Assembly: GCA_035650695.1 (NCBI GenBank)
Contig: DASRHD010000047.1
Location: 1 to 56,785 of the forward strand
From: Opitutaceae bacterium
GTDB taxonomy: Bacteria; Verrucomicrobiota; Verrucomicrobiia; Opitutales; Opitutaceae
DNA length: 56,785 nucleotides
Direction of reading: 5' to 3'
The first letter of the stretch is position 1. Each line of letters begins with the position of its first letter. A program made the position numbers and the translations under genes. Positions 29,230-56,053 of this stretch are shown here, in pieces. Below the pieces are notes generated by a model that ran no database searches, was not told the origin of the DNA, and saw only the letters and a list, made by a program, of their open reading frames with translations.

Positions 29230-29231
29230 CC

Positions 29232-36774: not shown

Positions 36775-37467
36775 TCACGGTGGCGCCACCGGAGTGATTT
36801 TGAGATTGGCGAAGTCGCCGCCGGCAATGTCGACCCAGAGGCCGATCCAGCCGCGTCTGTGATCGTTCAACTGATCCACCACGAGGCTCGGATCCCTGGC
36901 GCCGTCGACAAACACAGAGACCTTCGGCCAGGCGACGACAATCCGGGCGTGGAACCAGCCGTCGGGATCGGGTGCAGGCACGATCGGTTTCTCGTACTCT
37001 CCGGGATGCTCGGTGCGGAGTTTTTTCCAGCCGTAGGCGGGATGCGAAACGTACTGGACGGCATGTAACCGACGCTCCGGATCGGCGGCCTGGAAATTAA
37101 ACGGCCGGAAATAAATTACATCGTAATTTGTGTCATCCATGCCGTGAAAGGCGACGCCGAGGAAACTGCGCTGGACCACGTTCTGGCCCCGGGCGTCGAA
37201 CTCGATCACGCCGTCGTCGAAGGTGACGTTTTCCAGCCGGGCGATCCCGGTGCTGCCGTTGTTGTTGTCGAAATGAACCGCCGGCTTTCCGTCCTTTTCG
37301 ATGGCCGTCACGGTGCAATTGGCGACCTTCCAGCCCTGGCCGGCAACGAGTCCTGCGAGGTCGGGTTCGATGGGCGTTGGCTGGGCGGAAGCGAGGCTGG
37401 TCGCGATGAACCACGCGCAGACCGCAACGGCCGGGGCGCGGAAGTGGAGAAACGGGAGGGTTTTCAT
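36775..37467 (-). CDS. secreted concanavalin-like (DUF1080 / 3-keto-disaccharide hydrolase-like) protein
   Basis: Signal peptide MKTLPFLHFRAPAVAVCAWFIATSLASA and a jelly-roll-like pattern (GWFHARIVVAWPKVSVFVDG...GWIGLWVDIAGGDFANLKI). Start set at ATG 37467. 11 nt after the ADOP-1 stop. Confidence 0.6.
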   Translation of the reverse strand: MKTLPFLHFRAPAVAVCAWFIATSLASAQPTPIEPDLAGLVAGQGWKVANCTVTAIEKDGKPAVHFDNNNGSTGIARLENVTFDDGVIEFDARGQNVVQRSFLGVAFHGMDDTNYDVIYFRPFNFQAADPERRLHAVQYVSHPAYGWKKLRTEHPGEYEKPIVPAPDPDGWFHARIVVAWPKVSVFVDGARDPSLVVDQLNDHRRGWIGLWVDIAGGDFANLKITPVAPP

Positions 37468-37478: not shown

Positions 37479-39893
37479 TTATTCGGCGCGAAGGGCCTCG
37501 ACGGGATTGACGCGCGTCGCGCGGTGGGCGGGCAGCCAGCAGGCGAGCAGCATCGTGCCGGTCAGCACGGCGATGTTGGTGGCGAGCAGCCACAGCCCGG
37601 GCAGCGGCACCTCCGGAATCGTGCGCTGCACAAAAATATTCAATGCCAGGAAGGCCGGCACGCCAAGCGCGACGCCGATGACGAGCAGTCGGACACCCTC
37701 GCCGAGCACCATCCCCATGATGTCGCGATAGTGCGCCCCCAGGGCGATCCTCACGCCGATGTCGCGCGTGCGCTGGATGGCCAGCTGTGAGATCACGCCG
37801 AACAGGCCGATCGCGGCGATCAGCAGCCCCATGGTCGCGGAAATCCCGAGATTGATGGTCATCAGATTGACGTTGGAAAGCATACGGTCGATTTCGGCGC
37901 GGAGCGAACCTGCGCGAGCCACAGGCAGGTCCGCATCAAGCGCGGCCACCGCCTGCCTCACCGCCGGGGCAAGCATCTCTGGCGACATGTCGGCGCGCAG
38001 GGCGATCGTGAAGTAGTTGGGGGAGGTCTGGACGAGCGGCCGGTAAAGCTGCAGGCGGGTCTCCGGCTCATCGGCCCGCACCGCCATGCGCACGTTGCCC
38101 ACTACTCCGACGATCTGCATCCATCTTTCCCTGTCGGCAAAACGCACCCGCCGGCCAATCGGATTCTCACCGGGCCAGAACCGTTGGGCGAACGCTTCGT
38201 TGACGATCGCGACGGGTGGATCATCCGCTTTTAGGGCCGTGGAAAAGAGCGCGCCCTGCTTGAGGGAAATCTGCAACGCGGCAAAAAAGTCAGATGAGAC
38301 CGAGCCACTTTCCGCGATCGGTTCACGCCCACGTTCCGGCGCCGGCTGGCCTTCGACGATCAAAGGGCGCGCGCCGCCAATCGCATAAACCGGCAGATTT
38401 GTGGAGAGCGCGGCGTGTTTCACGCCGGGGATGGCGGCCAGACGGTCGAGAACTGCGCGCTGGAAGTCGCGCCGGCGGGCGTCGTCCGGATAGCGGTTCA
38501 TGGGCAGGACCACGTAACCGGCAAAAAGGCCGTCGGGCTGCCAGCCGAGTGGGCGGTGGGAAAACAATTTTGCGCCGACGCCGAACGAAGCGGCAATGCC
38601 GACCAGCGCGAGGGCGAGGGCCAGCTCGCCGACGATCAAGATGCATTTCAGCCGCTGGTGCGAGCGGCTGGCGGTGGCCGAGCGCGAGCCCTCCTTCAGG
38701 GCTTCCGCTGCACGAGCGCCCGCCGCAAGCCAGGCGGGCGCGAGCCCGAACGCCAGGCCGCTTAACAGCGAACTGAGAAGCGCGAACACGACGACGCGCC
38801 AGTCGAGGGGCAGCGAAAATCCGGCTTCATTGTTGATGATGAGGAAGCGGCCGACGGCGTTGTTTGACCACGAGGCGACGAGCAGACCGAGCGAGCCGCC
38901 GATAAGCGCCAAGACCATGCTTTCGGCCAGCAGCGGCCCCATCAACTGCCGCCGGTTTCCGCCGAGCGCGGCGCGCACGGCGAAGTCGCGACTGCGTCCG
39001 AGCGCGCGTGCGACCTGCAGGCTGGCCAGATTGGCGCACGCGATGAGTAGCATGGTGAGGGAAAGCCCGGTCATCAGCCACGTCAGGCTGCGGCTGGTTC
39101 CATCCAGGTTTGAGTCATGCAACTTAACCACGCGCAGTCCGTCGCCGCCGTTTTCCTTCGGGTACTCCTTCGCGAGCCGGGTTGCGATGGTCCCGAGTTC
39201 GGCTTGCGCCTGGTGGAGGCTGACGCCGGGCTTGAGCCGAGCGACGCAGTGCAGGAAGGCGTTGGTGCGCTGCGTCCGAAAACCGGGGAACTGGATCTGC
39301 GGAATGATGAATTCCGACGGTCCCCACACGAGCGGTGCCTCGAATGCGGGCGGCAGCACGCCGATGATGGTGAACGGCTGGCTGTTCAGCCGCACCGTCC
39401 GGCCGATCACGCCCGGATCGCCGCCGTAGCGACGCATCCACGCGCGGTGGGTGATGACGGCGATCCGGCCCTTGTCCGGCTGATCATCGCCCGCCGCGAA
39501 GCCGCGGCCTAGGGCTGGTTGCACGCGGAGCACATTGAAAAAGTCCGCGGTCACCGCGAGGCCGGAGACTTGTTCGGCCGACTGGCCCGGTTCACCGAGC
39601 GCGTAATTGTCCTCGTTGTAGAGGGCGAACCCGCTGAACGAGGCGGCTGTTTCGCCGATCTCCATGATGTTTCCCGGCGCATGCGGGCGGGTGAGCGACT
39701 GGCGCGAAGTGCGAAAAACGCGCACGAGACGTCCGCTCTCGGGATAGGGCACGTCGCGCAGCAGAAACGCATTTGTGGTGCTGAAGGTCGAGGTGCTGAA
39801 ACCGATGCCGAGCGCGAGGGTGAGCACGGCGACGGTGGTGAAGCCGGGCGATTTGGCGAGCTGGCGGAAGGCGTATTTGAGGTCGGAGAGCAT
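37479..39893 (-). CDS. ADOP-type duplicated FtsX/MacB-like ABC permease (ADOP-1; last in transcription order)
   Basis: 804 aa. N-terminus [19 protein letters not shown]. Two FtsX TM2-4 blocks (LLIACANLASLQVARALGRSRDFAVRAALGG... and IQRTRDIGVRIALGAHYRDIMGMVLGEG...). C-terminus RVNPVEALRAE. Confidence 0.9.
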   Translation of the reverse strand: MLSDLKYAFRQLAKSPGFTTVAVLTLALGIGFSTSTFSTTNAFLLRDVPYPESGRLVRVFRTSRQSLTRPHAPGNIMEIGETAASFSGFALYNEDNYALGEPGQSAEQVSGLAVTADFFNVLRVQPALGRGFAAGDDQPDKGRIAVITHRAWMRRYGGDPGVIGRTVRLNSQPFTIIGVLPPAFEAPLVWGPSEFIIPQIQFPGFRTQRTNAFLHCVARLKPGVSLHQAQAELGTIATRLAKEYPKENGGDGLRVVKLHDSNLDGTSRSLTWLMTGLSLTMLLIACANLASLQVARALGRSRDFAVRAALGGNRRQLMGPLLAESMVLALIGGSLGLLVASWSNNAVGRFLIINNEAGFSLPLDWRVVVFALLSSLLSGLAFGLAPAWLAAGARAAEALKEGSRSATASRSHQRLKCILIVGELALALALVGIAASFGVGAKLFSHRPLGWQPDGLFAGYVVLPMNRYPDDARRRDFQRAVLDRLAAIPGVKHAALSTNLPVYAIGGARPLIVEGQPAPERGREPIAESGSVSSDFFAALQISLKQGALFSTALKADDPPVAIVNEAFAQRFWPGENPIGRRVRFADRERWMQIVGVVGNVRMAVRADEPETRLQLYRPLVQTSPNYFTIALRADMSPEMLAPAVRQAVAALDADLPVARAGSLRAEIDRMLSNVNLMTINLGISATMGLLIAAIGLFGVISQLAIQRTRDIGVRIALGAHYRDIMGMVLGEGVRLLVIGVALGVPAFLALNIFVQRTIPEVPLPGLWLLATNIAVLTGTMLLACWLPAHRATRVNPVEALRAE

Positions 39894-40012
39894 GGGAAAA
39901 AGTTGGGAGTCGGGAGCTGAGAGTTGAGAGCCGGAGGGAGGAAAACAGAGGTCGGAAGTCAGTGGTCAGATGCCAGACGGTGAAGTGGATTCGGTGGTTT
40001 GAACTTCAACCG
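39894..40012 (-). repeat. conserved ADOP intercistronic element, copy A (119 nt; 48-nt core 39965-40012)
   Basis: Plus-strand core GTCAGATGCCAGACGGTGAAGTGGATTCGGTGGTTTGAACTTCAACCG abuts the ADOP-2 stop. The remainder is a purine-rich tract on plus (pyrimidine-rich in the mRNA) ending GGGAAAAA next to the ADOP-1 ATG. Confidence 0.85.
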
Positions 40013-42451
40013 TTATTCGGCGCGAAGGGCTTCGACCGGATCGACGCGCGTGGCGCGGCGCGCGGGGATCCAGCAGGCGAGCAGGGCCACGGCGGCTATC
40101 ACCACCGGGACGGCGATGAATGAGAGCGGGTCGCGCGCGCTGGTTTCGAACAGCATCGCCTCGATCAGCCAGCTGGCAGCGAATGCGATGCCGAGCCCAA
40201 CGAGGAGACCGGCGCCAACGAGCCGCACGCCCTGGCTCAGGACCATGCGCAGCACGTCGCTGCCTTGGGCCCCCAACGCCATGCGGATACCGATTTCGCT
40301 CGTGCGCCGGGCCACATTGTAGGCGACCACGGCGTAGATTCCTACGACGGCGATGAGCAGCGCCAACCCGGAAAATAGCGTGAGCAATTGCGCCGTGAAT
40401 CGGCGTTGCGCGAGCAGGTTGTCCAGTTGCGCTTGCAGCGGAGCGACGTCGACGATTACGAGTCCAGGCTCTACTTTGCGGGCCTGCGCCTGTATGGCCG
40501 CGAACAGTGCGGCGAGATCCCCTTGTCCGCGTACGATGACTTTGTGTTTGGTGCCGGTGGTGGCGAAGGGGAAATAAATCTGGTCGGCAATCGCGCTTTC
40601 GGGACCGCTCTGGCGCACGTCTCCCACGACGCCGATAATCTCCTGTGTCGGCGCGTTGGCCCGAGAAGAGACGACGAGCCGTTTGCCTACGGGATTTTCG
40701 TTGGGGAAACAGTGACGGGCGAGCGTGGCGTTGACGATGACGACGCCCGGCATCCCGGTTATTCTCGAATCCGACGGGACAAAGGTGCGTCCCTGGAGCA
40801 GTGGCACTCCCACGGCCGAAAAATATTCGGGTGACGCGCCGAGTATCATGGCGCGGGCGCGTTCGCTTTCCGGCTTCGGCCGGCCTTCCACACTGTAGGG
40901 TTGACTTGCCGGATAGGGGCTGATGGCGAACACGTTCCCGGTGCCGACCGCCTGCACGTTGGGCAGCTCATGCAGGCGTTCGATGAGACGCTGCCCAAAC
41001 GCGACGCAGGCTTCCGGAGTTGTGTACTGCTTGGGCGGGATCATGTAGTTGAACGCAATCGCCTGGCTCGGCTCGAAACCCGGATCGATCGCCGTGGCCG
41101 CCAGAAAACTGCGCAGAAAAACACCGGCGCCGATCAGCAGCACCACGGCCAGGGCCGTCTCGGCCACGACGAAGATGCCCCGCCAACGTCCGACGCCTCG
41201 GCCTTCCGTCGAGCCGCGACTACTTTCTTTCATTGCCGCCACGAGATTGATTCGTGAACCCAACAGCGCCGGGGCGGCACCGCAGAGCAACCCAGCGATG
41301 AGGGTGGCCGCAAAGGCGAAACCGAGCACCGGCCAGTCGAGTTGTACCTGCGGCAGGCGGTACAGCCCCGTGCCCACCTCGCCGATTTGCTGCACCTTGG
41401 CCACGCCGGAGGCGCGCACGAGATTGATCGCTCCCGCCGAAATGGCGAGGCCGAGAATGCCGCCGAACGATGCCAGCACGAGGCTCTCTATCATGAAAAG
41501 CCGTACGAGCCGACCACGGCCCGCGCCGAGCGCGGCGCGCAACGCGACCTCATGCTGCCGAGCGGTGGCGCGCGCCAACAAGAGATTGGCGATATTCGCA
41601 CAGGCAATGAGGAGCACGCATCCCACCGCCCCAAGCAGCGACCAAAGCATCGGTCCCGATTTGGAGGAGATGAACTTGGCCTTGTTGAGAACCACATAGC
41701 CAAAATTGGCATTGTGCGACTGCTCGGGCGTGACAGCGGCCGCCAATCGATTGATTTCTGCCTGCGCCGCCGCCATCGGCACGCCGGGTTTGAGCCGCGC
41801 CTCGGCGCCAATCAACAGCGGCCGATTGGGGTCCTGCGTGGCCGCGGGAACCAGCGGTGTCCAAGCGTCGATCTGGCTTGCCGAAAACGTGTCGGCGTCC
41901 GCCGTCGCCGGCAGCACCCCGATGATCGTGTACGGCTCGTCGTTGATTTGAAGAGTCTGACCGATCGGATCGGAGCCGTCGGGGAAGGCTTTCCGCCAGA
42001 GGCGCTCCTTGATCAAGGCGACCCGGTTCCGTCCGGCGGTGAATTCTTCCGGCAGGAATCCGCGACCACGGATCGGCTTGATTCCGCTTACGTCGAGCAG
42101 TTGCCCCCGCACTTCTTGGATTCCGATGCGAAACGCCTCACCCCCCGTCGAACTCATCGCAAAAGATCCGGCCACCCCGCACAACGCTTCGAACGAGGTG
42201 GCATGAGCCATCCATGCGTCGAAATGCCGGCCATCCGAAAAAACTGAACCAACCCCGGCATATCCCTTGGGCCGGATGAGCACCACGCGGTCGGAATGAA
42301 CTCCGTTCAATGGATGCAAAACGATCGTGTTGACGATCGAGAACACGACAGTGCACGCGCCGATCGCCAAGGCCGTCGCGAGAACAATGATGATCGCATG
42401 CGAAGGCGACTTCGCGAGCTGGCGGAAGGCGTATTTGAGGTCGGAGAGCAT
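40013..42451 (-). CDS. ADOP-type duplicated FtsX/MacB-like ABC permease (ADOP-2)
   Basis: 812 aa. MLSDLKYAFRQLAKSPSHAIIIVL, two FtsX blocks, C-terminus RVDPVEALRAE. Close paralog of ADOP-4. Confidence 0.9.
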   Translation of the reverse strand: MLSDLKYAFRQLAKSPSHAIIIVLATALAIGACTVVFSIVNTIVLHPLNGVHSDRVVLIRPKGYAGVGSVFSDGRHFDAWMAHATSFEALCGVAGSFAMSSTGGEAFRIGIQEVRGQLLDVSGIKPIRGRGFLPEEFTAGRNRVALIKERLWRKAFPDGSDPIGQTLQINDEPYTIIGVLPATADADTFSASQIDAWTPLVPAATQDPNRPLLIGAEARLKPGVPMAAAQAEINRLAAAVTPEQSHNANFGYVVLNKAKFISSKSGPMLWSLLGAVGCVLLIACANIANLLLARATARQHEVALRAALGAGRGRLVRLFMIESLVLASFGGILGLAISAGAINLVRASGVAKVQQIGEVGTGLYRLPQVQLDWPVLGFAFAATLIAGLLCGAAPALLGSRINLVAAMKESSRGSTEGRGVGRWRGIFVVAETALAVVLLIGAGVFLRSFLAATAIDPGFEPSQAIAFNYMIPPKQYTTPEACVAFGQRLIERLHELPNVQAVGTGNVFAISPYPASQPYSVEGRPKPESERARAMILGASPEYFSAVGVPLLQGRTFVPSDSRITGMPGVVIVNATLARHCFPNENPVGKRLVVSSRANAPTQEIIGVVGDVRQSGPESAIADQIYFPFATTGTKHKVIVRGQGDLAALFAAIQAQARKVEPGLVIVDVAPLQAQLDNLLAQRRFTAQLLTLFSGLALLIAVVGIYAVVAYNVARRTSEIGIRMALGAQGSDVLRMVLSQGVRLVGAGLLVGLGIAFAASWLIEAMLFETSARDPLSFIAVPVVIAAVALLACWIPARRATRVDPVEALRAE

Positions 42452-42461
42452 GGGAAAAAAC

Positions 42462-44867
42462 CTATTCGGCGCGGAGGGCTTCGATCGGGTTCACGCGTGC
42501 GGCGCGCCGGGCCGGGATCCAGCAGGCAAACAAGGCGATGGCAGCAAGGAGCGCCGGGACCGCCGCAAACGTGACGGCGTCGTAAGGTGGTACTTCAAAG
42601 AGCATTTTGCGGATGGTGAAGGCCGTGAACACGCTGGCACCCAGGCCGACGGCGAGGCCGGTCGCGATCGGGATCGCGCCTTGGCGCAGGATCAGGCGCG
42701 TCACTCCGCGAGCCTGAGCTCCGAGAGCCATCCGCACTCCGATTTCCCGGGTGCGCTGCGCGACCGAATAGGAGACCACGGCGTAGATTCCGATTGAGGC
42801 CAGAAGCAGGGCGAGGCCGGCAAAGGCGCCGATCAGGATGAGAGGAAACCGGCGGCCCAGGGCCGGTTTCGCCACCACGTCGTCCATTGTTGTGACGTTT
42901 GAGACAGGTACGGAAGGGTCGATCTGCTGCAGCACGTGCTTGGCGACGGCGACACAGGCAACGGGAGCAAGCGTCGTCCGGATGGTGATGAAAGCACTGG
43001 CAAACAATCTCTGGGACAGAGGGAAATAGAGGTCCATGCCAGGTCCGGCCTCGGGACCATTGCTTTTCACGTCGTTGACGATTCCGACGATTTCCGCTCC
43101 GTCGATGTGCTTGCCGATGGCCTGGCCGTCGGAAAAAAATTTGCGTGCGAGCGCCGAATCAACAATCACGACCGGCGGACCGTGTTCATTATCCTGGGCG
43201 GTGAAGTATCTTCCCTGGATCAACCTGATTCCGACCGTGCGGAAATAGTCGGGACTGACCCCGTGGCGGTTGGCGACCGGCGTTTCCGCGCGACTGCGGA
43301 AGACATGGCCTTCGGGAACAAACGGTCCACTCCAGTAAGCGTTGCCGATAAGGTCCGAACTCAGGCCGACCGATTCGAAACCGGGCTCAGCGCCAAGCTC
43401 GGCTTGAAGCCGGGTATAAACCGAGCGGAGGGACTCTTCCTCGCCAAACCGCGGATTGTAGAATCCGACGCGCATGGAAATCACACGGGCCGACTCAAAA
43501 CCCCAGGATGCGGCCTGCAGGCGATGGAAGCTTCGGAGCAACAGTCCGGCGGCGACAAGCAGAACGAGGGAGACGGAAACTTCGATCGCGACAAGCGTTG
43601 AGCGCAAGCGGCGTCGTTGCACGCCGGTCGTTCCGCCCCGGCTGGCACCGGCCAGGGCCCGGTTGGGATCGGACGAGGAGATTTCCAGGGCGGGGGCAAG
43701 GCCGAAGGCGATTCCGGTCAGGAGCGACAGGCCCAGGGCGAAGGCGAGCACTTCCCCGTCGACGCGTACCGCCGCCAGACGGGGAATGCTGGTGGGCGCG
43801 AGGGCGAGCAGCAGCCTCGTTCCGCCGAGACCGATCAAGACTCCGAGGACGCCGCCGAACAGGGCCAGCAGCAGGCTTTCCGTCAGCGCGTGGCACGCCA
43901 CGGCCCAACGGCTGGCGCCCAAAGCCATCCGTATGCCCATTTCCCGCTGCTGCGCCGTGGCCCGGACGAGGAGAAGATTGGCAATGTTGAGGCAGGCGAT
44001 GAGGAGGACGAGGCCGACACAGCCAAATAATGTGCCGAGAATCGGCCGAATCTGACCGACCGTCTGGTGGCGCATGGTTACGAGGTACACCGGCCGGTTC
44101 ATCTGGTTGGGATTGGGCAAGGCGCGCACCAATGCCGCCAGCTCTGCTTGCGCGCGGTCGACCGACACGCCGGGTCGCAGACGAGCCACAATTGTTCGTA
44201 GATAGTTGCCCCGGCCGTTGGCGTCGAAAGCCGCGGCCCCGACGTAGCTCTCCGGCACCTGCCCCGCGGGGCTGACATAGATTCCGGCTTCGTTCGGAAA
44301 CCGATAGTCGGGTGGCATGACCCCCATGACGACGAAGTCCACGCCGTTGATCGCGAAATGCCGGCCGATCGCGTCGTTGCCGCCGCCAAACTTGCTCCGC
44401 CAGTAGTCGTAGCTCAACACGGCAAGGCGCCCGGAGCCAAGCCGGACGTCTTCCGGCGTGAATACACGGCCGACGAACGCCCTGGCGCCAAGCACGGCAA
44501 AAAAATTGTCGCTGACCACCGCGCAGCCAACCACGTCCGGAGATCCGACGCCGGTAACCGCGCTGCCAAAAGCCGTGTAGGTCGCGGCATCGGCCAGGCT
44601 CTGTGAATGTTTGCGGATGTCGAGATAGTCGGCGGCAAAAAGACCGACTCCGTTGACCCGGATCGAGCCGCTTCCTGCCGGAGCCTGTTGGAAGATCACC
44701 AGGCGATCCGGATCGTCGAAGGGAAGCGGCCGGAGCAGAACGCCGTAAAAGAAGCTGAAGATGGCCGTGTTCGGCCCGATCCCCAAGGCAAGCGTGAGCA
44801 CGGCGACCGCAGTAAATCCCGGACTCCTGGCGAGTCGGCGGAAGGCGTATTTGAGGTCGGAGAGCAT
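42462..44867 (-). CDS. ADOP-type duplicated FtsX/MacB-like ABC permease (ADOP-3)
   Basis: 801 aa. MLSDLKYAFRRLARSPGFT, two FtsX blocks, C-terminus [11 protein letters not shown]. 10-nt gap to ADOP-2. Confidence 0.9.
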   Translation of the reverse strand: MLSDLKYAFRRLARSPGFTAVAVLTLALGIGPNTAIFSFFYGVLLRPLPFDDPDRLVIFQQAPAGSGSIRVNGVGLFAADYLDIRKHSQSLADAATYTAFGSAVTGVGSPDVVGCAVVSDNFFAVLGARAFVGRVFTPEDVRLGSGRLAVLSYDYWRSKFGGGNDAIGRHFAINGVDFVVMGVMPPDYRFPNEAGIYVSPAGQVPESYVGAAAFDANGRGNYLRTIVARLRPGVSVDRAQAELAALVRALPNPNQMNRPVYLVTMRHQTVGQIRPILGTLFGCVGLVLLIACLNIANLLLVRATAQQREMGIRMALGASRWAVACHALTESLLLALFGGVLGVLIGLGGTRLLLALAPTSIPRLAAVRVDGEVLAFALGLSLLTGIAFGLAPALEISSSDPNRALAGASRGGTTGVQRRRLRSTLVAIEVSVSLVLLVAAGLLLRSFHRLQAASWGFESARVISMRVGFYNPRFGEEESLRSVYTRLQAELGAEPGFESVGLSSDLIGNAYWSGPFVPEGHVFRSRAETPVANRHGVSPDYFRTVGIRLIQGRYFTAQDNEHGPPVVIVDSALARKFFSDGQAIGKHIDGAEIVGIVNDVKSNGPEAGPGMDLYFPLSQRLFASAFITIRTTLAPVACVAVAKHVLQQIDPSVPVSNVTTMDDVVAKPALGRRFPLILIGAFAGLALLLASIGIYAVVSYSVAQRTREIGVRMALGAQARGVTRLILRQGAIPIATGLAVGLGASVFTAFTIRKMLFEVPPYDAVTFAAVPALLAAIALFACWIPARRAARVNPIEALRAE

Positions 44868-44929
44868 GGGAAAAGTTGAGTGTCAGATGCCAGACGGTGA
44901 GGTGGATTCGGTGGTTTGAACTTCAATCG
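44868..44929 (-). repeat. conserved ADOP intercistronic element, copy B (62 nt; 48-nt core 44882-44929)
   Basis: Core GTCAGATGCCAGACGGTGAGGTGGATTCGGTGGTTTGAACTTCAATCG differs from copies A and C at 2 positions each. This copy lacks the long purine-rich middle part. Confidence 0.85.
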
Positions 44930-47362: not shown

Positions 47363-47377
47363 GGAAAATGGGCCGGC

Positions 47378-47430
47378 TTATTCTGCGTGGCGGACTTCGA
47401 TCGGGCCGAAGCGCATGGGACGGCGTCTTC
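47378..47430 (-). pseudogene. relic of the 3' end of a further ADOP gene
   Basis: TTATTCTGCGTGGCGGACTTCGATCGGG matches 23 of the first 27 nt of the genuine ADOP 3' end TATTCGGCGCGGAGGGCTTCGATCGGG. It translates to ...PMRFGPIEVRHAE-stop, compared with ...[12 protein letters not shown]-stop. It lies 15 nt upstream of the ADOP-4 ATG, and similarity decays after about 30-50 nt. Confidence 0.45.
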
Positions 47431-47481
47431 GGCCATCGAAGCTGTGGCGGGGAGAGAAGGCGCGAGGCTGGTGAAAGAATT

Positions 47482-48189
47482 TCATTGGCTCACAAGGGAC
47501 GGTCGTGCCTCCGGCACCTTGGCTCCTTTCACGAGCAACCAGAGAATCATCGCCAATTCGCCGGCGGCGTAAAACGGCATCGCGAACTGGGAGACCACCG
47601 ATCGGCTGGCGGGCAGGACGATGGCGGTGAAACTCAACGCGACATAAGTGACGCCACCGACAATCAACAGAAGGCCGAGCCACTTGGGGAAGAACCCGGA
47701 TTTGATGACGAGCCGCCCGAAGGGGAAGAGCCACAGGCCCCAAAAGATCATCGCGATGGGAATTCCCTGGCGATATAATCTCAGGAAGCCCATGGCCAGG
47801 GCGTTCAGTTGCGGCGGCGTGAAAGCCGCAGCGTATTCAGGGCCCCTCAGGAAGATGAGCGGCGCGATTTGATTGACGAGATTGACAATGCCGATGGCGG
47901 CGGCGACGGCCACCAACACCACTAACAGCCCCGCCTGCTTTCGGTCCACGTCCCGGAACAGTTCATAGAGGGTCAGGGCCAGGTAGAGAAAAACGATGCG
48001 GGCAACGAGTCCGCTGAAAATGCCGAGGCGGAAGGTCAGTTCGCCCGCCATGATGGCATGCGCCGTGGCGGCCGGATCCCCGGTGACGAGGAAGGCGCGG
48101 GGAATATAGATTTCGTTGAACGGTGCCGTGATCGCGAGCAGGAGGTAGAGGAATCCTGCCCGCCGGGCGGTTGTCTGGATTGAGTTCAT
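47482..48189 (-). CDS. DUF4386-family integral membrane protein
   Basis: 235 aa with about 6 TM helices. N-terminal pattern RRAGFLYLLLAITAPF...VTGDPAATAHAIMAGELTFRLGI is typical of DUF4386. Confidence 0.7.
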   Translation of the reverse strand: MNSIQTTARRAGFLYLLLAITAPFNEIYIPRAFLVTGDPAATAHAIMAGELTFRLGIFSGLVARIVFLYLALTLYELFRDVDRKQAGLLVVLVAVAAAIGIVNLVNQIAPLIFLRGPEYAAAFTPPQLNALAMGFLRLYRQGIPIAMIFWGLWLFPFGRLVIKSGFFPKWLGLLLIVGGVTYVALSFTAIVLPASRSVVSQFAMPFYAAGELAMILWLLVKGAKVPEARPSLVSQ

Positions 48190-48228
48190 GGGGGTCTCCT
48201 GCAGTATGGATTGCGGCTGGCTACGACT

Positions 48229-49095
48229 TCATTTCGCATCGAGCTTCTTGAGCGCGTCGCTGGCTTGTTGGTAGCCCGGGTTGATGGCGAGGGCGGCTTC
48301 GTAGGCGGCGCGGGCGGCTTTCTTGTCGCCCTGTTTATCCCGGAGGTTGCCCAGGCGCCAGTGGACGGCATCGTATCCCGGCGCGCCCGGAGGCGGCGAG
48401 AGCGTGAGGCACTTTTGGAGCGCCTCGACGCCGTGGTCCATGCGTTCACCCGTCATACCGGCAAGCCGGCCGAATTGGTAGAGCGCGAGGTAGTTTTCGG
48501 GCGCGGCCTTGAGTGCTTCTTCCAGCTCGGTGAACGCTTCCGCATATTTTTTCTCGCCAATGTAGAGCATGGCGTAGGCGGTGCGGCCCTGGCTGGCGTC
48601 GATCTTCTTGATCTCCCCGGCTTGGGCGTAGGCTTTTTCGGCACTTCCGCCGATGATGCCGGGCGCCTGTTGGTAGAACATCATCAGGCTGCTGCGGGCG
48701 TTGAGGTTTTGCGGGTCGAGTTCGACGGCCTTCTCGTAGGCGAGGCGGCATTTTTTCGCCCAGCTCATCTTGGTTATAATCCCGGCCTTTTGCGCGGTGA
48801 AACCGTAGGCCTCGCCGAGCTGGCGGCGATATTCGCTGTTCTGAGGGGCAAGCTCCACCGCCTTCTCGCAGGCCGTGACGGCGGCGTTGGGATCGCCCTT
48901 GGCCAGGCTGATGCTGCCAAGCAGGGCATAGCCTTCGGCCTCGTTCGGGTCCGCGGCGATCACGGCGCGCGTGGCGGACTCGGCTTCGGCGACTTTGTGG
49001 TCTCGAAGCAGCCCACGGATGGTTTCGATTTTTTCGGGGGAAACCGCCGCCTTGGCGACGGCGGCGATGAAGAGGAGGAGGAGGAGAGAGCGCAT
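48229..49095 (-). CDS. secreted tetratricopeptide-repeat protein
   Basis: Signal peptide MRSLLLLLFIAAVAKAA. Several 34-aa TPR units (e.g. AEGYALLGSISLAKGDPNAAVTACEKAVELAPQN; AARAAYEAALAINPGY). Confidence 0.8.
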   Translation of the reverse strand: MRSLLLLLFIAAVAKAAVSPEKIETIRGLLRDHKVAEAESATRAVIAADPNEAEGYALLGSISLAKGDPNAAVTACEKAVELAPQNSEYRRQLGEAYGFTAQKAGIITKMSWAKKCRLAYEKAVELDPQNLNARSSLMMFYQQAPGIIGGSAEKAYAQAGEIKKIDASQGRTAYAMLYIGEKKYAEAFTELEEALKAAPENYLALYQFGRLAGMTGERMDHGVEALQKCLTLSPPPGAPGYDAVHWRLGNLRDKQGDKKAARAAYEAALAINPGYQQASDALKKLDAK

Positions 49096-49123
49096 GGGTA
49101 AACAGGATTGGAAAACGAGGCGA

Positions 49124-51544
49124 TCACTCGGTGCGTAATGCGATCATCGGATCAATCCTCCCCGCCCGACGGGCGGGCAGCCAACAGGCGACCAGCGCAA
49201 CGGCGATGAGGAAACAGATGGTGGCAATCAGCACCGGCGGACTGTTGAAGTGCATGCCGGGAAATCCGGTGGCGATGAGGCGCGAAACAACCAGCGCGCA
49301 GAGCAGGCCGAGCGCCGACCCGAGCAGGGCCAGTTTCACCCCGGCAGTCAGCACGAGGCGGGTGATGCCCTGGGCACTCGCGCCCAAGGCGAGGCGGATG
49401 GCGAATTCGCCGGCACGCTGGGCCATCGTGCAGGCGATGACGCCGTAGATGCCGAGCGAGGCGAGACCGAGTCCGAGCGCCGCGATTGAGCCCAGGATTT
49501 CGCGGATGATGCCGAGCTGGAAATTCGCCTGGTAGATGGTCTCATCGGCGGTCTGGAGGTTTCGCACCGGCAGGTCCGGATCGAGATCCGCCATCGCCTG
49601 GCGGATACTGGCGACAACGGTGGCGGACGAGACGCCGGCGATGCGCACGGCGATTTCGTTTTGGCGGCGCGGCTCCTGGGCCAAGGGTTGGTAGAGTTGA
49701 AACGTCACCGGTCCCGGATTGGGAACCACGGATGTTACGTCAGCCACGACGCCGACGATCTCGCCCCATTGGAGATTGGGGCCACCGGCGGTGGCGAGGC
49801 GCCGCCCGATCGGGTTTTCCTTGCCGAAAAGTCCCGCGGCCATGGTTTGGTTGATGATGAAAACTTTTCCCGTGCCCGCGGTGTCGCGCTCGGTGAAGGC
49901 GCGCCCGGCGAGCACGCGCGTGCCGACGGTCTCAAAATAACGCGGCGTGACGCCGTTGACGACGGCCGTGGGTTCATGCCCCGGCGCCGGAGGCTCCCGG
50001 CCTTCGACCAAATACGGGCGGGCCTCGTACCATTTGAAGAAGGGGGTGTACGACGAAATGCTGGCGGAGACGACGCCCGGGAGGGCTTCGAGACGTTCCA
50101 CGATGAGCCGGTGGAAGGCGTTCATTCTCTCCGCATCAGGGTAGCCGGCGGCCGGGAGCACGACGGTGCCGGTGATGAGCGATTCGGAATTCCAGCCGGC
50201 TCGACGGCTGTTCAGCTCATCGACTCCACGGATGAAGAGGGCGGCCCCGGCAAGCAAAACCATCGCGAGGGCAAACTGGCCGACGATGAGAACGTCGCGG
50301 AAGTGCCGATGGCCGCGGTCGCCCGTCGTGCCGCGGCCACCGCTCTTGAGCGTTTCATTCAGGCCAAGCCGCATGGCAAAAAGTGCCGGAGCCAATCCGA
50401 AGGCGACGGCCGTGACGAGCGATGCCGCCAGCGCCCAGCCGAGCACGTGCCCGTCGAGGGTGAACACGATTCTCTCGCCGTTGTCCACGGTGGCGCGGAC
50501 GGAGAGGTAATCCGTGCTCCAGCGCGCGACAACGATGGCGCACAAGCCCCCGGCGAGGGCCAGCAACAGCGACTCCATGATCAGGGGACGCAGCAACTGC
50601 AGGCGCGAGGCGCCCAGGGCGGAGCGCACCGCAAATTCACGAGCGCGCGCGATCGTGCGGACCAGCAGGAGATTCGCCAAATTGGAACACGCGATGAGCA
50701 GCACAAAGCCGGAAAGGCCGACCAGCATCGGCATCATCACGACACCGGCCTTGGGCACGACCGAGTCGTTGAGCGGCACGGCACGCCAGGTGTTGCCGGC
50801 ATCGACTTCCGGATGGTCGGCGGCGAGGCGCGCGCCAAAATTGGCGATAAAACCCGCGGCTTCGGAGCGAGAAAGCCGGCTGGAACGCCGGCCGATCAGG
50901 CGGAGAACCAGGCTGCGACGGTCGGCGGACTTCTGCCGGTCGAGAGCCAGCGGCCGAAACAGATCGATCCCGCCAAGATGGCGGAAATCGTTAAACGAGG
51001 CGGGCAGCACTCCCACGATTTCATGCGGCTCGCCGTCGATGCGCAGGGTGCGGCCGATGATATCGGTCCTGCCGCCGAAGCGGTTCTGCCAGCAACGTTG
51101 ACTGATGATCACGACGCGATCGTTGCCCGGCGCGTCCTCCCGCGCCAGGAAGCCACGACCGAGCTGCGGCCTCACTCCGAGCGTGGAAAAGAAATTCGCC
51201 GAGGTGCGGACGGCCTTGGCCACCTCGGCGGGCTGTCCGGGTTCCGACAGGCTGGTATCTCCATAAGCGAAAGCGGCGATCTCACCATAGCCGTGCATCT
51301 CCCGCTGGAGATCGAGAAAATCAGCCGGCGACACACGGCCATCAGCATTCTGCGCGGTTGTGCGTTCGATGCTGTCGAGTTGCGCGCTGTTGGCATAAGG
51401 CAGGGGTTTCAACACAACCCGGTTGAGCATGCTGAACATCGCGGTATTCGCCCCGATCCCGAGCGCGAGCGTGAGCACGGCGACGGCGGTAAAGCCGGGC
51501 GACTTCGCGAGCTGGCGGAAGGCGTATTTGAGGTCGGAGAGCAT
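49124..51544 (-). CDS. ADOP-type duplicated FtsX/MacB-like ABC permease (ADOP-5)
   Basis: 806 aa. [19 protein letters not shown], two FtsX blocks, C-terminus RIDPMIALRTE. Confidence 0.9.
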   Translation of the reverse strand: MLSDLKYAFRQLAKSPGFTAVAVLTLALGIGANTAMFSMLNRVVLKPLPYANSAQLDSIERTTAQNADGRVSPADFLDLQREMHGYGEIAAFAYGDTSLSEPGQPAEVAKAVRTSANFFSTLGVRPQLGRGFLAREDAPGNDRVVIISQRCWQNRFGGRTDIIGRTLRIDGEPHEIVGVLPASFNDFRHLGGIDLFRPLALDRQKSADRRSLVLRLIGRRSSRLSRSEAAGFIANFGARLAADHPEVDAGNTWRAVPLNDSVVPKAGVVMMPMLVGLSGFVLLIACSNLANLLLVRTIARAREFAVRSALGASRLQLLRPLIMESLLLALAGGLCAIVVARWSTDYLSVRATVDNGERIVFTLDGHVLGWALAASLVTAVAFGLAPALFAMRLGLNETLKSGGRGTTGDRGHRHFRDVLIVGQFALAMVLLAGAALFIRGVDELNSRRAGWNSESLITGTVVLPAAGYPDAERMNAFHRLIVERLEALPGVVSASISSYTPFFKWYEARPYLVEGREPPAPGHEPTAVVNGVTPRYFETVGTRVLAGRAFTERDTAGTGKVFIINQTMAAGLFGKENPIGRRLATAGGPNLQWGEIVGVVADVTSVVPNPGPVTFQLYQPLAQEPRRQNEIAVRIAGVSSATVVASIRQAMADLDPDLPVRNLQTADETIYQANFQLGIIREILGSIAALGLGLASLGIYGVIACTMAQRAGEFAIRLALGASAQGITRLVLTAGVKLALLGSALGLLCALVVSRLIATGFPGMHFNSPPVLIATICFLIAVALVACWLPARRAGRIDPMIALRTE

Positions 51545-51656
51545 GGGAAAAAGTTGAGAGTCGAGAGCCGGAGGGCGGAAAACAGAAGTCAGAGATCAGA
51601 AGTCAGCGGTCAGATGCCGGACGGTGAGGTGGATTCGGTGGTTTGAACTTCAACCG
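51545..51656 (-). repeat. conserved ADOP intercistronic element, copy C (112 nt; 48-nt core 51609-51656)
   Basis: Core GTCAGATGCCGGACGGTGAGGTGGATTCGGTGGTTTGAACTTCAACCG abuts the ADOP-6 stop. The purine-rich (plus strand) tract is similar to copy A and ends GGGAAAAA next to the ADOP-5 ATG. Confidence 0.85.
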
Positions 51657-54095
51657 TTATTCGGCGCGGAGGGCTTCGATTGGATCGACGCGCGTGGCGC
51701 GGAATGCGGGCAGCAGGCAGGCGATGCTGGTGACGGCGAGTAGCAGAAGCGCGATGCCGGCGAAGACGCCCGGATCTTGAGCCGTGACACCGAAGAGGAG
51801 CGTGTTGAGCACGGTCGCCATCGCAAAGGATCCCGCGAGACCGAGCGCCACGCCAAGCGCGACGAGGCGAAGACCGCCCCCGAGCACGAGTCGCAACACG
51901 TCATGCCGCTGCGCACCGATCGCCAGACGGATACCGAACTCGCGGCGACGTTGCGCGACGGCGTAACTCAGCACGCCGTAGGTGCCAATGGCCGCCAACA
52001 CCAGCGCTGCCGCCGCAAAGAGGCTGGTGAGCAGCGCGGAGGAGCGCCGTTGGATCAGGCTGTCGTCGATGTAGCCCTGCATGGATCGGATGTCGTCGAC
52101 CGGGAGTTCCGGATCGAGGCGTTGCACCGTTTTTCGCAGCGTTGAGGTTATGGCGGCCGGCGCGAGACGGGTCCGCACGACGATCGTGATCGTGCGATTG
52201 GCATTATACCGGTAGGGAAAGTAGATCGAACCCAGTGGCGAGGTTTCGGCGAGTTCGGTTGTTTTCACATTCCCGACCACGCCAACGATGGTGAAGTTGT
52301 CGGCTTCCTGGAAGGTGGCATCCTTGGTGAAGCGGCGGCCGATCGCGTCGCCTTTCGGCCAGTAACGTTGAGCAAACGCCTCGTCCACGACGCAAACTCG
52401 CTGACGGCTGCTCTGGTCCGCCGCTTCCAGCCAACGACCCGCGCGCAACGGAATCCCGAGCGTCGATCCAAAATCACCATTGATCCAGAAACAGCGGTGC
52501 GCGCGAATCGAATCGCCCGGGCGAGCCGCGTATCCTTCCACCGTGACCACCGACGAGTTCGTCACGGCCTCCGGCGTGAAAGGGACCGCCGTCGTCGCCG
52601 CCACGGACTCCACACCCGGCTGCGCCTGCAATTCGCTGAGCAACCGTTGCTCGAAATCCAGGCGACTCGTTGTATCCTTGTAACGATTACCGGGAAGACT
52701 GAGCCGGCCGGCGAAAACATGCTCGGGCTGGAAACCCGGCGAAACGGCGAGCACGCGATGCAGGCTGACGCCGAGCAAGCCGGCGCCGGCCAACAGCACG
52801 AACGCGAGGGCAATTTGCGCAACGATGAAGCTCTGGCGCAGACGTTGGGCGGCGCGACCGGAAGTCCCGCCGCGAGAGCCGGATTGCAGCGCGAGCGCGA
52901 CGGGCTGGCGCAAATTGAACCAGATAATGGGGACAGCGAGAGCAGCGCCCACGAGGAGTGAGCCGAGCCAGGCCACGGCGGCGACGCGCCCGTCAAACGT
53001 CACTTGCGCCCCGAGCGGGAGTTCGTTCGTGCCGAGGATCGACAACAAATCGACGCCAAACGCGCCCGCCACTATGCCAACCGTGCCGCCGAGGATGCTC
53101 AGCAACAGCGTCTCTACCAGAACCTCGCGTATCACGTCGCGACAAGCGGCACCGAGCGCCTGACGTACCGCGAATTCCCGCGTCCGCCCGCTGGCCCGAA
53201 CCAGGAGGAGGTTGACCAAGTTCACGCCGCCGATGAGCAGCAGGCAAAGAGCGCCCGCTTGCAATAGCACGAGCGTCGGACGCACCGAACGCACGTGATC
53301 GGCGTGGAGCGAAGACACCGAAGCACGATAACCGGCTGCCTGCAGTTGAGTCGCCACGGGATCGTCGGCGAGTTGGCGGGCATCAAGGGCGCGAATCTGC
53401 GCCTGCGCGGTCTCGAGGGAAGCACCGGGCGCCAGGCGAGCGATGACGCGCGTGTTGCCGGTGTGTCGGCGATCGACGGCGCGCTCTCTGACTGGAGAAG
53501 CCAGCGGAAAGTACAGCTGTGCACGGCTGGAGAGGTAACGAAAATCACGGGGTAAGACGCCTACGATGGGAGCGTTCTGGCCATCAACCCGAAGCTCACG
53601 GCCAAGAATGTCCGGGTCGGCATTGAAATGGCTGCGCCAATAGGCATCGGTCAGCACCACGGCATTGCCCCCCAATTTATTCGTGTCTTCTTCGGTAAAG
53701 AATCGTCCCAGCGCCGGCTTGATTCCCAAAGTGGCAAAAAACTCCGAGGATACTCGCCCGCAGAGCACGCTGCTTGGAGCGTCGCCGGAACCGATTATGA
53801 CGCTGCCATTGCGCTCGGCGGAGACCGAAGCAAAGGCGGGAATGCCCGTGCGCCAATCATAGTAGTTGGGCAGCGAACCGTCGGCCCGGCTAATCCCGGC
53901 TCCCGGGTAGTCCTTCGTGACAATCACGAGCCGGTCCGCCTCGGGAAACGGCAACGGACGGAGCAGAATGGCATCGACGACGGCGAAGATGACGACGTTG
54001 GCCCCGATGCAGAGCGCGAGGGTGAGCAAAGCAACCGTCGTGAAGCCGGGCGATTTTGCGAGTTGCCGGAGGGCGTAGCGGAGATCGGAAAGCAT
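51657..54095 (-). CDS. ADOP-type duplicated FtsX/MacB-like ABC permease (ADOP-6; first in transcription order)
   Basis: 812 aa starting [19 protein letters not shown] at ATG 54095, in frame inside track ORF 51657-56105. Two FtsX blocks, C-terminus [11 protein letters not shown]. 5 nt after the ATPase stop. Confidence 0.9.
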
Positions 54096-54100
54096 GGGCT

Positions 54101-54796
<696 letters not shown>

Positions 54797-54799
54797 GGC

Positions 54800-56053
54800 C
54801 TAGTTGAGTTTGATGCGGTCGTTGGCGTCCCATTGGGACATGTCGGAAAGGATCACGCGGTCGCCGGGCTGGAGGCCCTTGACGATTTCGATCGTATTGA
54901 CGGAACTGCGGCCGAGTTCCACCTGCGTGCGTGCGGCGTAAACGCCGCCGGAATCGAGTTTGAAGATGCCCACGGTGCTTTTCTCCTCGCCGAAGGCGGG
55001 CCGGCCCACGTAAACGACGTCTTCGAGCCGTTCGAGCTCGATCGTGCCGTCGACCGAAAGATCGGGGCGCGCGCCCCGGGGCAGCGCGCCGGCCAGGGTC
55101 ACATCCACCGTGACCGTGCCGTTCTGGACGGAAGGATCGATGCGCGCGACCCGGCCGGTGACGATGCCGTTGCGCGTATCGATTGTCGCGGGTTGGCCGA
55201 TCTGGATGTCCCTTGCCTGGGTTTCGGCGATCTGCACCGCGGCCTTGAGGCGCGTCGGATCCGCCACGCGCGCGAGGTTGGTGCCGGGCTGCACGCGTGT
55301 GCCGACCTCCACCGGCACCAGTTGCAGGACGCCGTGCATGCCCGCCCGAACATTGAGGGCATCGGCTTCCGCGTGGCGGAGTTTCGCCTGGGCCCGGAGC
55401 TGGTCCACCGTGGCTTGTTTTGAAGCCAGTTGTGGCGCCATGGACTCCTTTGCGAAGGCGCAGCGCTTCTGCTGGATAGAGTTGACTGCCTCGGCCTGTT
55501 CGGCGGTGACCCTGGAAAGCTGCACGTTGAGATCGGACTCGAGTCCTTCCTTGAAAAGCTGGGCGGTGACCTCGGCCCTGAGACGGGCCTGATTGTAATT
55601 CGCCCTGGCGTTGGCCGCGTCGAACTCGGCCTGGAGTTCGCTGCTCTGCAACTGCACGCGCAGGTTTTCCAGGTCGGCTTCGGCGGCCTTGAGCTGGGAA
55701 TCGGCATCGATCGCCGCCTGCTCGACGTTGGGATTGCTCAGCACGAGGATGATGCTGTCCGGTGCCACGGTGGCGCCGGGGTTCAGGACGATGCGATCCA
55801 CGTGTCCCTCGGTGCGCGCCGGAATCCAGCTGATGTCCTCCGGCACCAGTGTGCCCAGGCCATGCACCTCGCGGATCATGGAGCCGCGTTTCACGCTGTC
55901 GATCCAGACCAGGCTGCGCTCGACCGAGGGCACGGCGGGCTTGAGCCGCGCGAGTCCGATCGTGATGCCAGTGAGCGCCAGCACCGTCGCACCGGCGGCG
56001 AGCAGGCGTTTTCTGAACTTGGCCTTGGCTTGGGATGGACGCGGAATATCCAT
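54800..56053 (-). CDS. periplasmic adaptor (HlyD/MacA family membrane fusion protein)
   Basis: N-terminal TM anchor ([19 protein letters not shown]), a long coiled-coil ([38 protein letters not shown]...) and a beta-barrel C-terminus. Confidence 0.9.

Follow-up and report, generated by a model that had tools for sequence, protein, structure and literature searches.

Can the permeases of the ADOP family (TIGR03434), which go by the name of orphans, be tied to an ATPase, an adaptor and a regulator? The original curated description of the family was reportedly based on three Acidobacteria genomes and limited to Acidobacteria, and to our knowledge the genes in that description are not adjacent to ATPase genes. 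The question is raised by a stretch of 56,785 nt (positions 1 to 56,785 of contig DASRHD010000047.1) from an Opitutaceae bacterium (assembly GCA_035650695.1), which is called the window here. On its minus strand six ADOP genes stand behind the genes of a membrane fusion protein (MFP), that is, a periplasmic adaptor, and of a soluble ATP-binding cassette (ABC) ATPase. The locus very probably encodes a sigma-54-regulated, MacAB-TolC-like system in which the permease is an ADOP. The wider reading sees in this region the permease-rich part of a tripartite type VII ABC exporter of MacAB-TolC type, under sigma-54 control, in which six permeases share one ATPase/adaptor core; in our judgement it is evenly balanced between right and wrong.

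The map of open reading frames (ORFs) shows the minus-strand order kinase fragment, MFP, ATPase, ADOP6, ADOP5, TPR protein, DUF4386 protein, ADOP4, ADOP3, ADOP2, ADOP1 and secreted protein, and it reproduced the gene order, coordinates and gaps given in a preliminary description of this DNA. The C-terminal part of a sensor histidine kinase (56201..56785, truncated by the window end; HATPase_c 69 bits) is separated by 147 nt from the gene of the 417-aa MFP (54800..56053). From the MFP gene through that of the secreted protein the gaps, listed by size, are 3, 5, 10, 11, 28, 39, 62, 112, 119 and 119 nt, all on a single strand. The MacB-type soluble ATPase (54101..54796, 231 aa) and the HlyD-type adaptor are attached to the first ADOP gene by gaps of 5 nt and 3 nt, as had been described. 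The ADOP6 frame stays open for 670 codons further upstream, through the ATPase and MFP genes, which use another frame (51657-56105, minus strand); the resulting 1482-aa ORF is spurious, and the true ADOP6 start is an internal ATG. No PadR regulator, outer-membrane factor or sigma-54 regulator is encoded within the window, which bears out the absence of the first two noted earlier.

All six large ORFs are ADOP permeases: ADOP6 (51657..54095, 812 aa, 813.2 bits against TIGR03434), ADOP5 (49124..51544, 806 aa, 803.1 bits), ADOP4 (44930..47362, 810 aa, 771.3 bits), ADOP3 (42462..44867, 801 aa, 857.9 bits), ADOP2 (40013..42451, 812 aa, 796.9 bits, 10 nt after ADOP3) and ADOP1 (37479..39893, 804 aa, 783.7 bits). 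Their scores of 771-858 bits lie above the trusted cut-off of the NCBIfam model (622.3 bits), model positions 2-803 are covered in each, and Pfam finds two MacB_PCD domains (PF12704) and two FtsX domains (PF02687) per protein. Against the MacB equivalog they reach 88-133 bits, with a cut-off of 966, and they also fall far under the LolCE cut-off. These profile searches confirm family membership from end to end, with scores that are not those of ordinary MacB- or LolC-type permeases. The motifs MLSDL(K/R)YA(F/L)R at the N-terminus and ALR(A/T)E at the C-terminus are as described. Mean pairwise identity among the six proteins is 88% over the first 17 residues, 70% over the last 12, 39-41% in the blocks of transmembrane (TM) helices 2-4 and 6-8, and 26-28% in the two periplasmic domains. 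The cytoplasmic ends are conserved and the periplasmic domains divergent, in line with the preliminary description.

Hydropathy and AlphaFold2 agree on a layout of eight TM helices, namely TM1, a periplasmic domain and TM2-4, repeated once. In the AlphaFold2 model of ADOP6 (pLDDT 77, pTM 0.68) the two periplasmic domains are of the alpha/beta kind. Short helices lie between TM2 and TM3 and between TM6 and TM7, the site of the coupling helix in MacB-type proteins. TM4 is joined to TM5 by some 25 cytoplasmic residues, and the protein is a direct 4+4 fusion. The type VII ABC unit is present twice in this model: four TM helices, of which the first two enclose a periplasmic domain, long stalk helices, and a coupling helix that connects TM2 to TM3. 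Foldseek matched it with probability 1.00 to YbbP, MacB, Spr0695, LolC/E, BceB and HrtB. The best structural match is YbbP (9ge6_A, E 1.4e-19, TM-score 0.49, sequence identity 13%), and the solved chain nearest by sequence is MacB (E 1e-21).

The window ATPase, called type A below, scores 253 bits with the DarD model, 224 bits with LolD and 220 bits with the nucleotide-binding domain (NBD) of MacB, the NBD being a separate protein here. The closest solved chains are Spr0694, MJ0796, LolD, the MacB NBD and YbbA, and Walker A, Walker B, Q-loop, LSGGQ signature and H-loop are intact. The MFP scores 103.6 bits against TIGR01730 (cut-off 94.9), carries the Pfam domains HlyD_D23 and HlyD_3, and gives a weak but full-length match to DarC. 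Its AlphaFold2 model, built on a two-sequence alignment, is usable for an N-terminal TM helix and an alpha-hairpin of 60+60 residues (pLDDT 81-85); the remainder is poor (mean pLDDT 49).

The surroundings of ADOP genes in other genomes were examined in two scans. The first used the six-paralogue alignment as query against one genome per species and yielded at least 568 confirmed relatives, from which 79 loci were kept; the second used the MFP as query against metagenomes and gave at least 520 relatives among the matches listed. Loci (numbered L002 and so on) were annotated by comparing their six-frame ORFs with the proteins of the window. Among the matches listed, the nearest relatives come from metagenome-assembled genomes of Chthoniobacterales and Opitutaceae, and the family also occurs in Gemmatimonadota and Corallococcus; ADOPs have been reported from Bacteroidota as well (PMC3914696). 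Among 41 ADOP loci sampled in Verrucomicrobiota, 31 hold at least three ADOP genes within about 22 kb (maximum 8; median over all 41 loci 4), a MacB-type ATPase lies within 10 kb in 13, and a PadR gene stands directly upstream in one. For the 27 loci of Acidobacteriota the corresponding numbers are four with at least three ADOPs (median over all 27 loci 1), three with a MacB-type ATPase and eight with PadR upstream. This Acidobacteriota pattern of single ADOPs and PadR fits the situation that reportedly gave the family its name.

Of the 79 genome loci anchored on an ADOP, 19 have an adjacent ATPase and so do not show the 'orphan' trait. A head of MFP and ATPase genes of the same type as in the window was found in seven loci (L012, L021, L036, L041, L066, L075 and L079) from Gemmatimonadota, Verrucomicrobiota (including Udaeobacter and Opitutus) and Acidobacteriota. 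It is followed directly by an ADOP in five of them and one gene later in L012; in L021 the contig ends. At 51 metagenome loci with at least 600 nt of sequence beyond the ATPase gene, the next gene encodes an ADOP in 32 cases, a TolC-like protein in eight, a second ATPase in four and another or unknown product in seven. The claim that ADOP genes are essentially never found beside an ATPase gene is thus refuted by the 13 of 41 Verrucomicrobiota loci and the 32 of 51 metagenome loci, and with it the supposed rarity of the arrangement among relatives. ATPase-linked ADOP arrays turned out to be common; already characterised they are not. No functional study of an ADOP turned up in literature searches on TIGR03434, on ADOP together with Acidobacteria and on paralogues of MacB/FtsX. 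The layout is common in uncultured soil bacteria, not a rarity, and is experimentally unstudied.

PadR-like small genes of about 100-160 codons were also seen directly 5' of the first or sole ADOP gene in eleven loci, mostly of Acidobacteriota and Gemmatimonadota (L026, L033, L040, L049, L051, L055, L069, L070, L076, L077 and L078). The assignment was confirmed with PF03551 for L040 and rests on similarity for the others.

The closest relatives of the locus among the matches listed (L081, L085, L086, L088, L092 and L093, with 64-80% MFP identity) share the order ATPase-B, TolC-family gene, sigma-54 response regulator, histidine kinase, MFP, ATPase-A and a variable number of ADOPs. Full-length kinase homologues of about 445 aa adjoin the MFP gene upstream in L021, L041, L079 and many metagenome loci. 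They have two TM helices about eight residues apart and no periplasmic domain, and their cytoplasmic linker and sensor region looks HAMP/PAS-like when judged by eye. By its build the kinase appears to be of the type that senses within the membrane or via a partner. In relatives it is preceded by a sigma-54 response regulator of the NtrC/AtoC/ZraR type. In L021, in L081 (the closest relative among the matches listed) and in many other metagenome loci the module is accompanied by a TolC-family gene (PF02321, TIGR01844-like). For the window itself, an outer-membrane factor gene is most likely located a few kb beyond position 56785, judging from these gene orders, and a second ATPase gene, if present, would likewise lie past the window end. 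Identical copies of its ATPase and MFP genes were found only on contigs of 0.9 and 2.2 kb (JGI 3300005532, SRR5581483), where the sequence past 56785 is not readable. The order sigma-54 response regulator, kinase, MFP, ATPase and one or more ADOPs constitutes a conserved module, and it recurs across phyla.

The second ATPase, ATPase-B, has 221 aa, 45% identity to ATPase-A, intact catalytic motifs and a DarD score of 237 bits; its D-loop reads NLHS, compared with NLDS in ATPase-A. It is present in 13 of 38 loci with long flanks, and in at least seven genome loci it lies within ADOP arrays that have no MFP. An obligatory heterodimer of ATPases A and B, matching the unlike halves of an ADOP, was considered and is unsupported, if conceivable, since type B occurs in 13 of those 38 loci only and both types are catalytically complete, with a difference in the D-loop alone. 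A gene of the DUF4097 ('toastrack') family was also observed directly 5' of ADOPs in L009 (1509-2615), L032 (3862-4833), L036 (11727-12728) and L052 (1449-2573). In the last three it stands between a type-B ATPase and an ADOP, a second conserved ADOP context that has no adaptor.

A -24/-12 element of the sigma-54 type, TGGCACagcgcCTGC (TGGCAC-N5-CTGC, 56071-56085, minus strand), lies 32 nt upstream of the MFP start codon and has the exact GG/GC spacing. About 100 nt further upstream follows the palindrome GGGACGACGGCGTCCC (GGGAC-N6-GTCCC, 56172..56187, minus strand; single copy in the window), a putative upstream activator site for a sigma-54 activator. Both motifs were sought in 82 regions upstream of MFP genes, with random 260-nt windows from the same loci as control. 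The -24/-12 element was found in 37 of the 82 regions, mostly 27-46 nt before the MFP start (control 1.0%), and GGGAY-N4-9-RTCCC in 43, mostly about 100 nt upstream of the -24/-12 element (control 1.8%). Thirty regions, namely that of the window and those of 29 related loci, contain both motifs, about 100 nt apart in nearly all. Because the motifs are conserved and a sigma-54 activator is encoded next to them in relatives, the comparison argues strongly that a sigma-54 promoter, with a putative upstream activator site, precedes the MFP gene. Scans for sigma-70 promoters and intrinsic terminators gave counts at the level of shuffled sequence and are uninformative.

Taken together, these parts suggest the following mechanism. 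The kinase, lacking a periplasmic sensor domain, and an NtrC-type activator, whose gene is probably located just past the window end, would switch on the sigma-54 promoter before the MFP gene. The transcript would contain the MFP gene, that of the one soluble ATPase and at least the first ADOP, and may reach all six. With two MacB units (each TM1, periplasmic domain, TM2-4) in one chain, every ADOP is a pseudo-dimer and would bind two ATPase copies via its two conserved coupling helices, giving a predicted 2:1 ratio of ATPase to permease. A ring of adaptors above the ADOP would join a TolC-like channel encoded elsewhere in the genome. Upon ATP binding the periplasmic domains would be squeezed (mechanotransmission), expelling substrate from the periplasm or the outer leaflet through the channel. 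Transport would probably be outward, and our guess for the substrates is envelope-active peptides, lipopeptides and other amphiphiles. The six permeases would serve as alternative, substrate-specific modules on the same core of ATPase, adaptor and channel, because their ATPase-facing ends are kept and both periplasmic domains differ.

The preliminary description had proposed a MacAB-like tripartite machine in which one ATPase/adaptor pair serves interchangeable permeases. The tripartite part is upheld. The model is also incomplete, as the homologous loci further contain, just upstream of the point where the window ends, a two-component system of the sigma-54 kind, the gene of a TolC-like channel and in many cases ATPase-B. 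Sharing of the core is plausible and has indirect comparative support. The subtype of ADOP beside ATPase-A varies, being ADOP6-type in the window, ADOP1-type in L092 and ADOP3-like in L086 and L093, and orthologues of ADOP6 stand mid-array in L002 and L022. Furthermore, cores of MFP, ATPase and outer-membrane factor genes, with an optional ATPase-B and with the sigma-54 regulator and kinase also present, occur in six loci (L147, L149, L151, L156, L157 and L160) that have no FtsX-type gene in the available flanks; these flanks cover 10 kb upstream in L149 and L151 and a further 2 kb past the kinase gene in L151, and are shorter on the other contigs. In L140 and L143 the MFP and ATPase genes are followed by 6-9 kb without a permease. 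As an ATPase and an adaptor cannot work without a membrane partner, permease-less cores would have to use permeases encoded elsewhere. The paralogues are moreover old (32-38% identical), and their cytoplasmic ends are kept where the periplasmic domains diverge. That one ATPase/adaptor core serves many permeases is supported by these comparisons, not proven. Co-expression of the array is suggested by its single strand, by the lack of a terminator-like site in any of its intergenic gaps, with scan counts window-wide at the shuffled level, and by the short ADOP-ADOP junctions in relatives (median about 40 nt, n=152).

The junctions between the genes bear on whether the array is one unit. ADOP1, ADOP2, ADOP3 and ADOP5 have identical first 29 nt and share the leader ACTTTTTCCC (minus strand, 39865-39903, 42423-42461, 44839-44877 and 51516-51554). 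Where ADOP1-5 encode the same amino acid, their codon identity reaches 0.73 over codons 1-17 and 0.44 over the remainder of the genes; arrays in other genomes keep the N-terminal peptide motif and leave synonymous sites free. In addition, a 48-nt element with 98% identical copies follows the stop codons of ADOP6, ADOP4 and ADOP2 (51609-51656, 44882-44929 and 39965-40012, minus strand), where it forms part of the intergenic leaders 51545..51656 (pyrimidine-rich, opening with the element and unstructured, z -0.09), 44868..44929 and 39894..40012. The genes flanking it are much less alike, ADOP6 being just 32-33% identical to ADOP2 and ADOP4. An RNA motif or terminator was rejected for this element, because it folds no better than shuffled sequences (z -0.09 to -0.85) and has no match in Rfam, which matched nowhere in the window. 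A sigma-54 promoter was rejected as well, since no GC stands at the required distance behind the TGGCAT of the element. As the element is absent from all related loci examined, it appears to be a local homogenised junction and not a conserved regulatory RNA. The sequence identities would most simply reflect gene conversion, or unequal recombination from one junction to another, within this lineage; a common translation-initiation region under selection is the alternative. In about half of 28 gene starts checked CCC stands immediately 5' of the ATG, and few have a GGAG-like Shine-Dalgarno sequence, which suggests an unusual translation-initiation context in this organism. The homogenised junctions might also promote recombinational reshuffling of permease cartridges in this genome.

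Several observations weigh against core sharing by all six permeases. A stable hairpin (47363..47481, minus strand; minimum free energy -41 kcal/mol, z -3.08, equalled by 0 of 200 shuffles) lies in the gap between the DUF4386 gene and ADOP4. No U-tract follows. The hairpin might mark the boundary of a transcript, be a site of processing or act as a stabiliser; together with the inserted TPR and DUF4386 genes it would make ADOP1-4 perhaps a separate unit. Promoters of an unrecognised type are possible in the three gaps of 112-119 nt, and the 5' context of ADOP1-5 is unlike that of ADOP6. ATPase-B is the usual ATPase inside arrays, so that the partner of ADOP1-5 could lie outside the window, and an outer-membrane factor is missing from the window. 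Among the 13 arrays of at least three ADOPs with a visible upstream end, five have an MFP-ATPase head within 10 kb. Finally, the conserved N- and C-terminal motifs occur family-wide and are no proof of a common partner. The invariant N-terminus as a mark of a partner shared in this array had to be rejected, because ADOPs from other phyla likewise begin with M(x)xD(L/F)(K/R)(Y/F)A(F/L)R..KSPGF. The peptide pattern MLSDL[KR]YA[FL] alone retrieved hundreds of genes in four phyla, and array members in other genomes bear close variants of the motif.

The best-surviving rival explanation, which we regard as unlikely, holds that only ADOP6, as the gene translationally coupled to the ATPase gene, pumps with this ATPase and adaptor, and that ADOP1-5 act independently with other ATPases, such as a type-B ATPase encoded elsewhere, and have piled up there through tandem duplication and recombination. 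It would account for the fact that ADOP6 alone has a 5-nt gap and a 5' sequence of its own, while ADOP1-5 carry a T-rich leader and near-identical first 29-55 nt, and it agrees with the type-B ATPases inside arrays that lack an MFP and with the hairpin and inserted genes that separate ADOP5 from ADOP4. However, the ADOP subtype beside ATPase-A, which varies by genome, and the existence of MFP-ATPase-outer-membrane-factor cores without any permease speak against it, and the close spacing without terminators favors co-expression of the array. Core sharing would extend beyond this locus in a further proposal, which we put forward tentatively and hold to be somewhat doubtful: ADOPs would be 'orphans' because they are interchangeable, substrate-specific cartridges for a few shared cores of ATPase, adaptor and TolC-like channel. 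One core under sigma-54 and two-component control, in some genomes encoded without any permease, would then power many different ADOPs, whether arrayed or scattered in the genome.

It is quite improbable, in our view, that the ADOPs are not efflux permeases at all but mechanotransmitters or extractors like FtsEX, LolCDE or YbbAP-TesA, which would pass lipids, lipoproteins or signals on to partners in the periplasm, with at most the array head linked to a channel. The structural similarity to YbbP is in keeping with such a role; YbbP is reported to extract hydrophobic compounds for a hydrolase, with no adaptor involved (PMC12646458). The MFP is absent from most ADOP loci, and genes of secreted proteins, among them a TPR protein, lie in and after the array. 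On the other hand, this module conserves MFP, ATPase and outer-membrane factor genes beside its ADOPs, and the ADOPs possess complete MacB-type periplasmic core domains. Nor does any periplasmic partner gene recur, the conservation of the TPR gene (48229..49095, minus strand; several Pfam TPR families, signal-peptide-like N-terminus) not having been examined. The DUF4386 membrane protein (47482..48189, minus strand; PF14329, 160 bits) is unique to the window, with no counterpart in any related locus examined. A role as conserved accessory components was considered for the TPR and DUF4386 genes; for DUF4386 it is rejected, the gene being treated as an insertion in view of the missing counterparts.

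As to the age of the array, 13 of the 15 paralogue pairs are 32-38% identical, and ADOP2 and ADOP4 share 70.7%. Orthologues of ADOP6 in other genomes score 840-862 bits, and an orthologue of ADOP1 in L034 reaches 1052 bits. With paralogues so distant, and with clearly closer orthologues of ADOP1 and ADOP6 elsewhere, the sequences point to an ancient, maintained diversification and not to a recent amplification. The idea that the array consists of recently amplified or decaying copies without individual function, for which the ADOP2-ADOP4 identity and the near-identical junctions might speak, can practically be dismissed, as it is already contradicted by these distances and orthologues, by six intact, full-length ORFs that all exceed the family cut-off and by the conservation of similar arrays in many lineages.

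The array is followed, 11 nt 3' of ADOP1, by the gene of a secreted protein (36775..37467, minus strand), whose membership in the unit is uncertain. Its earlier label 'DUF1080-like' has weak support, the match to PF06439 being below the cut-off (E 0.007). One weak homologue (33 bits) is encoded just upstream of the ADOP array in L029. Elsewhere in the window lies a second, conventional operon of the MacAB/DevABC kind (15350-19661, minus strand). It encodes an adaptor (18429-19661), an ATPase (17728-18432) with 45% identity to the ADOP-linked one, and two single-unit FtsX/MacB_PCD permeases (16548-17702 and 15350-16546). Neighbours unrelated to the array, at 19708-31859, encode the hydrogenase maturation factor HypF and an AIR-synthase-related (HypE-like) protein, besides a PocR-AraC regulator, a pyruvate:ferredoxin oxidoreductase of 1240 aa and a dihydroorotate-dehydrogenase-like protein. 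Such a gene set hints that the organism may live anaerobically or metabolise hydrogen.

We regard the system as an uncharacterised but widespread form of the tripartite type VII ABC pumps, one that combines arrays of fused double permeases and a separate ATPase with an adaptor, a TolC-like channel and control by sigma-54. What is new is the conserved module of sigma-54 response regulator, histidine kinase, MFP, ATPase and ADOPs with its promoter and palindrome, joined upstream by a TolC-like gene and ATPase-B in close relatives. ADOPs are among the largest paralogous families of abundant soil phyla (Acidobacteriota, Verrucomicrobiota, Gemmatimonadota and some Bacteroidota), and the searchable literature holds no ADOP with a function, partner or regulator. 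The locus and its relatives provide a testable parts list for them, comprising a sigma-54 activator, a kinase, an adaptor, one or two ATPases, a TolC-like channel and variable ADOPs. If one core indeed serves many permeases, the 'orphan' puzzle would be explained, a modular design for multiple specificities would be added to the type VII ABC pumps as an exporter counterpart of the group II ECF transporters, and the finding would bear on how uncultured soil bacteria handle the antibiotics and amphiphiles that surround them. If only the first permease uses the core, the locus would be a MacAB-like pump beside a duplication hot-spot.

Compared with the ADOP family as described, the window proteins agree in their end-to-end match to TIGR03434, in their two MacB_PCD and two FtsX domains and in their size of about 800 aa. 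They differ in having an attached ATPase and MFP and in their nearest relatives, which are Verrucomicrobiota, whereas the original family description was reportedly one of Acidobacteria without an adjacent ATPase gene; the PadR-ADOP pairs typical of Acidobacteriota loci are absent from the window. Another ADOP arrangement has been published for genomic island 43 of Psychroflexus torquis, a 42-kb cluster with about ten ADOP paralogues and ATP-binding transporter genes, the proteins of which are highly abundant (Feng et al. 2014, PMC3914696). Like the window it is a multi-ADOP cluster with ATP-binding transporter genes, but its host belongs to Bacteroidota and it was published without a regulatory or mechanistic analysis.

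With MacAB-TolC, and likewise Spr0693-0695 and DevBCA, the locus shares the TM1-PCD-TM2-4 fold, an NBD of the MacB/LolD type and an adaptor of the HlyD type whose hairpin is long; in the homologous loci, not in the window, a TolC-family gene is a further likeness. In contrast to MacB proper, which is fused to its NBD and has a homodimeric transmembrane domain, the window NBD is a separate 231-aa protein and the permease units are fused and non-identical, forming a pseudo-heterodimer. Six permease genes accompany one ATPase and one adaptor, and a two-component system acting through sigma-54 is predicted to exert control. In E. coli, YbbAP(-TesA) resembles the locus in that a double MacB-type permease, fused into one chain, is served by an ATPase, YbbA, that is a protein of its own. 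According to a review, YbbP consists of two MacB units and two extra linking TM helices, ten TM helices in total (PMC5985334), compared with eight in ADOP6, and YbbAP acts with a lipid hydrolase and without an adaptor or channel.

The trans-envelope exporter of darobactin, DarBCD, is encoded by genes for a permease, an MFP and an ATPase (PMC8442675), and the same three-gene logic applies here. DarD is the top NCBIfam model for both ATPase-A and ATPase-B, DarC spans the whole MFP, and the DarB model, with 777 positions, is about the size of an ADOP. However, all scores are under the equivalog cut-offs, the DarB-ADOP match is marginal (E about 1e-5 to 1e-6), and neither a precursor of a peptide made on the ribosome and modified after translation (RiPP) nor a radical-SAM maturase is encoded beside the window array. 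BceAB-BceRS of Firmicutes is another type VII ABC system with a fused double permease, a separate ATPase and an adjacent two-component system, whose kinase likewise has two TM helices and no extracellular sensor domain. It differs in that BceB has ten TM helices and one extracellular domain, where an ADOP has eight and two periplasmic domains. Its regulator is of the OmpR type and not sigma-54-dependent, and each module contains one permease and neither an adaptor nor an outer-membrane channel. A parallel to a shared core is found among importers. In group II ECF transporters one EcfAA'T complex serves many S components, and ATPases of the MsiK type serve several importers. These folds are unrelated to those encoded here, and the systems import substrates instead of exporting them across the envelope, but if the sharing proposed for the Opitutaceae locus is real, both would follow the same principle of one ATPase-containing core and many substrate-specific membrane components.

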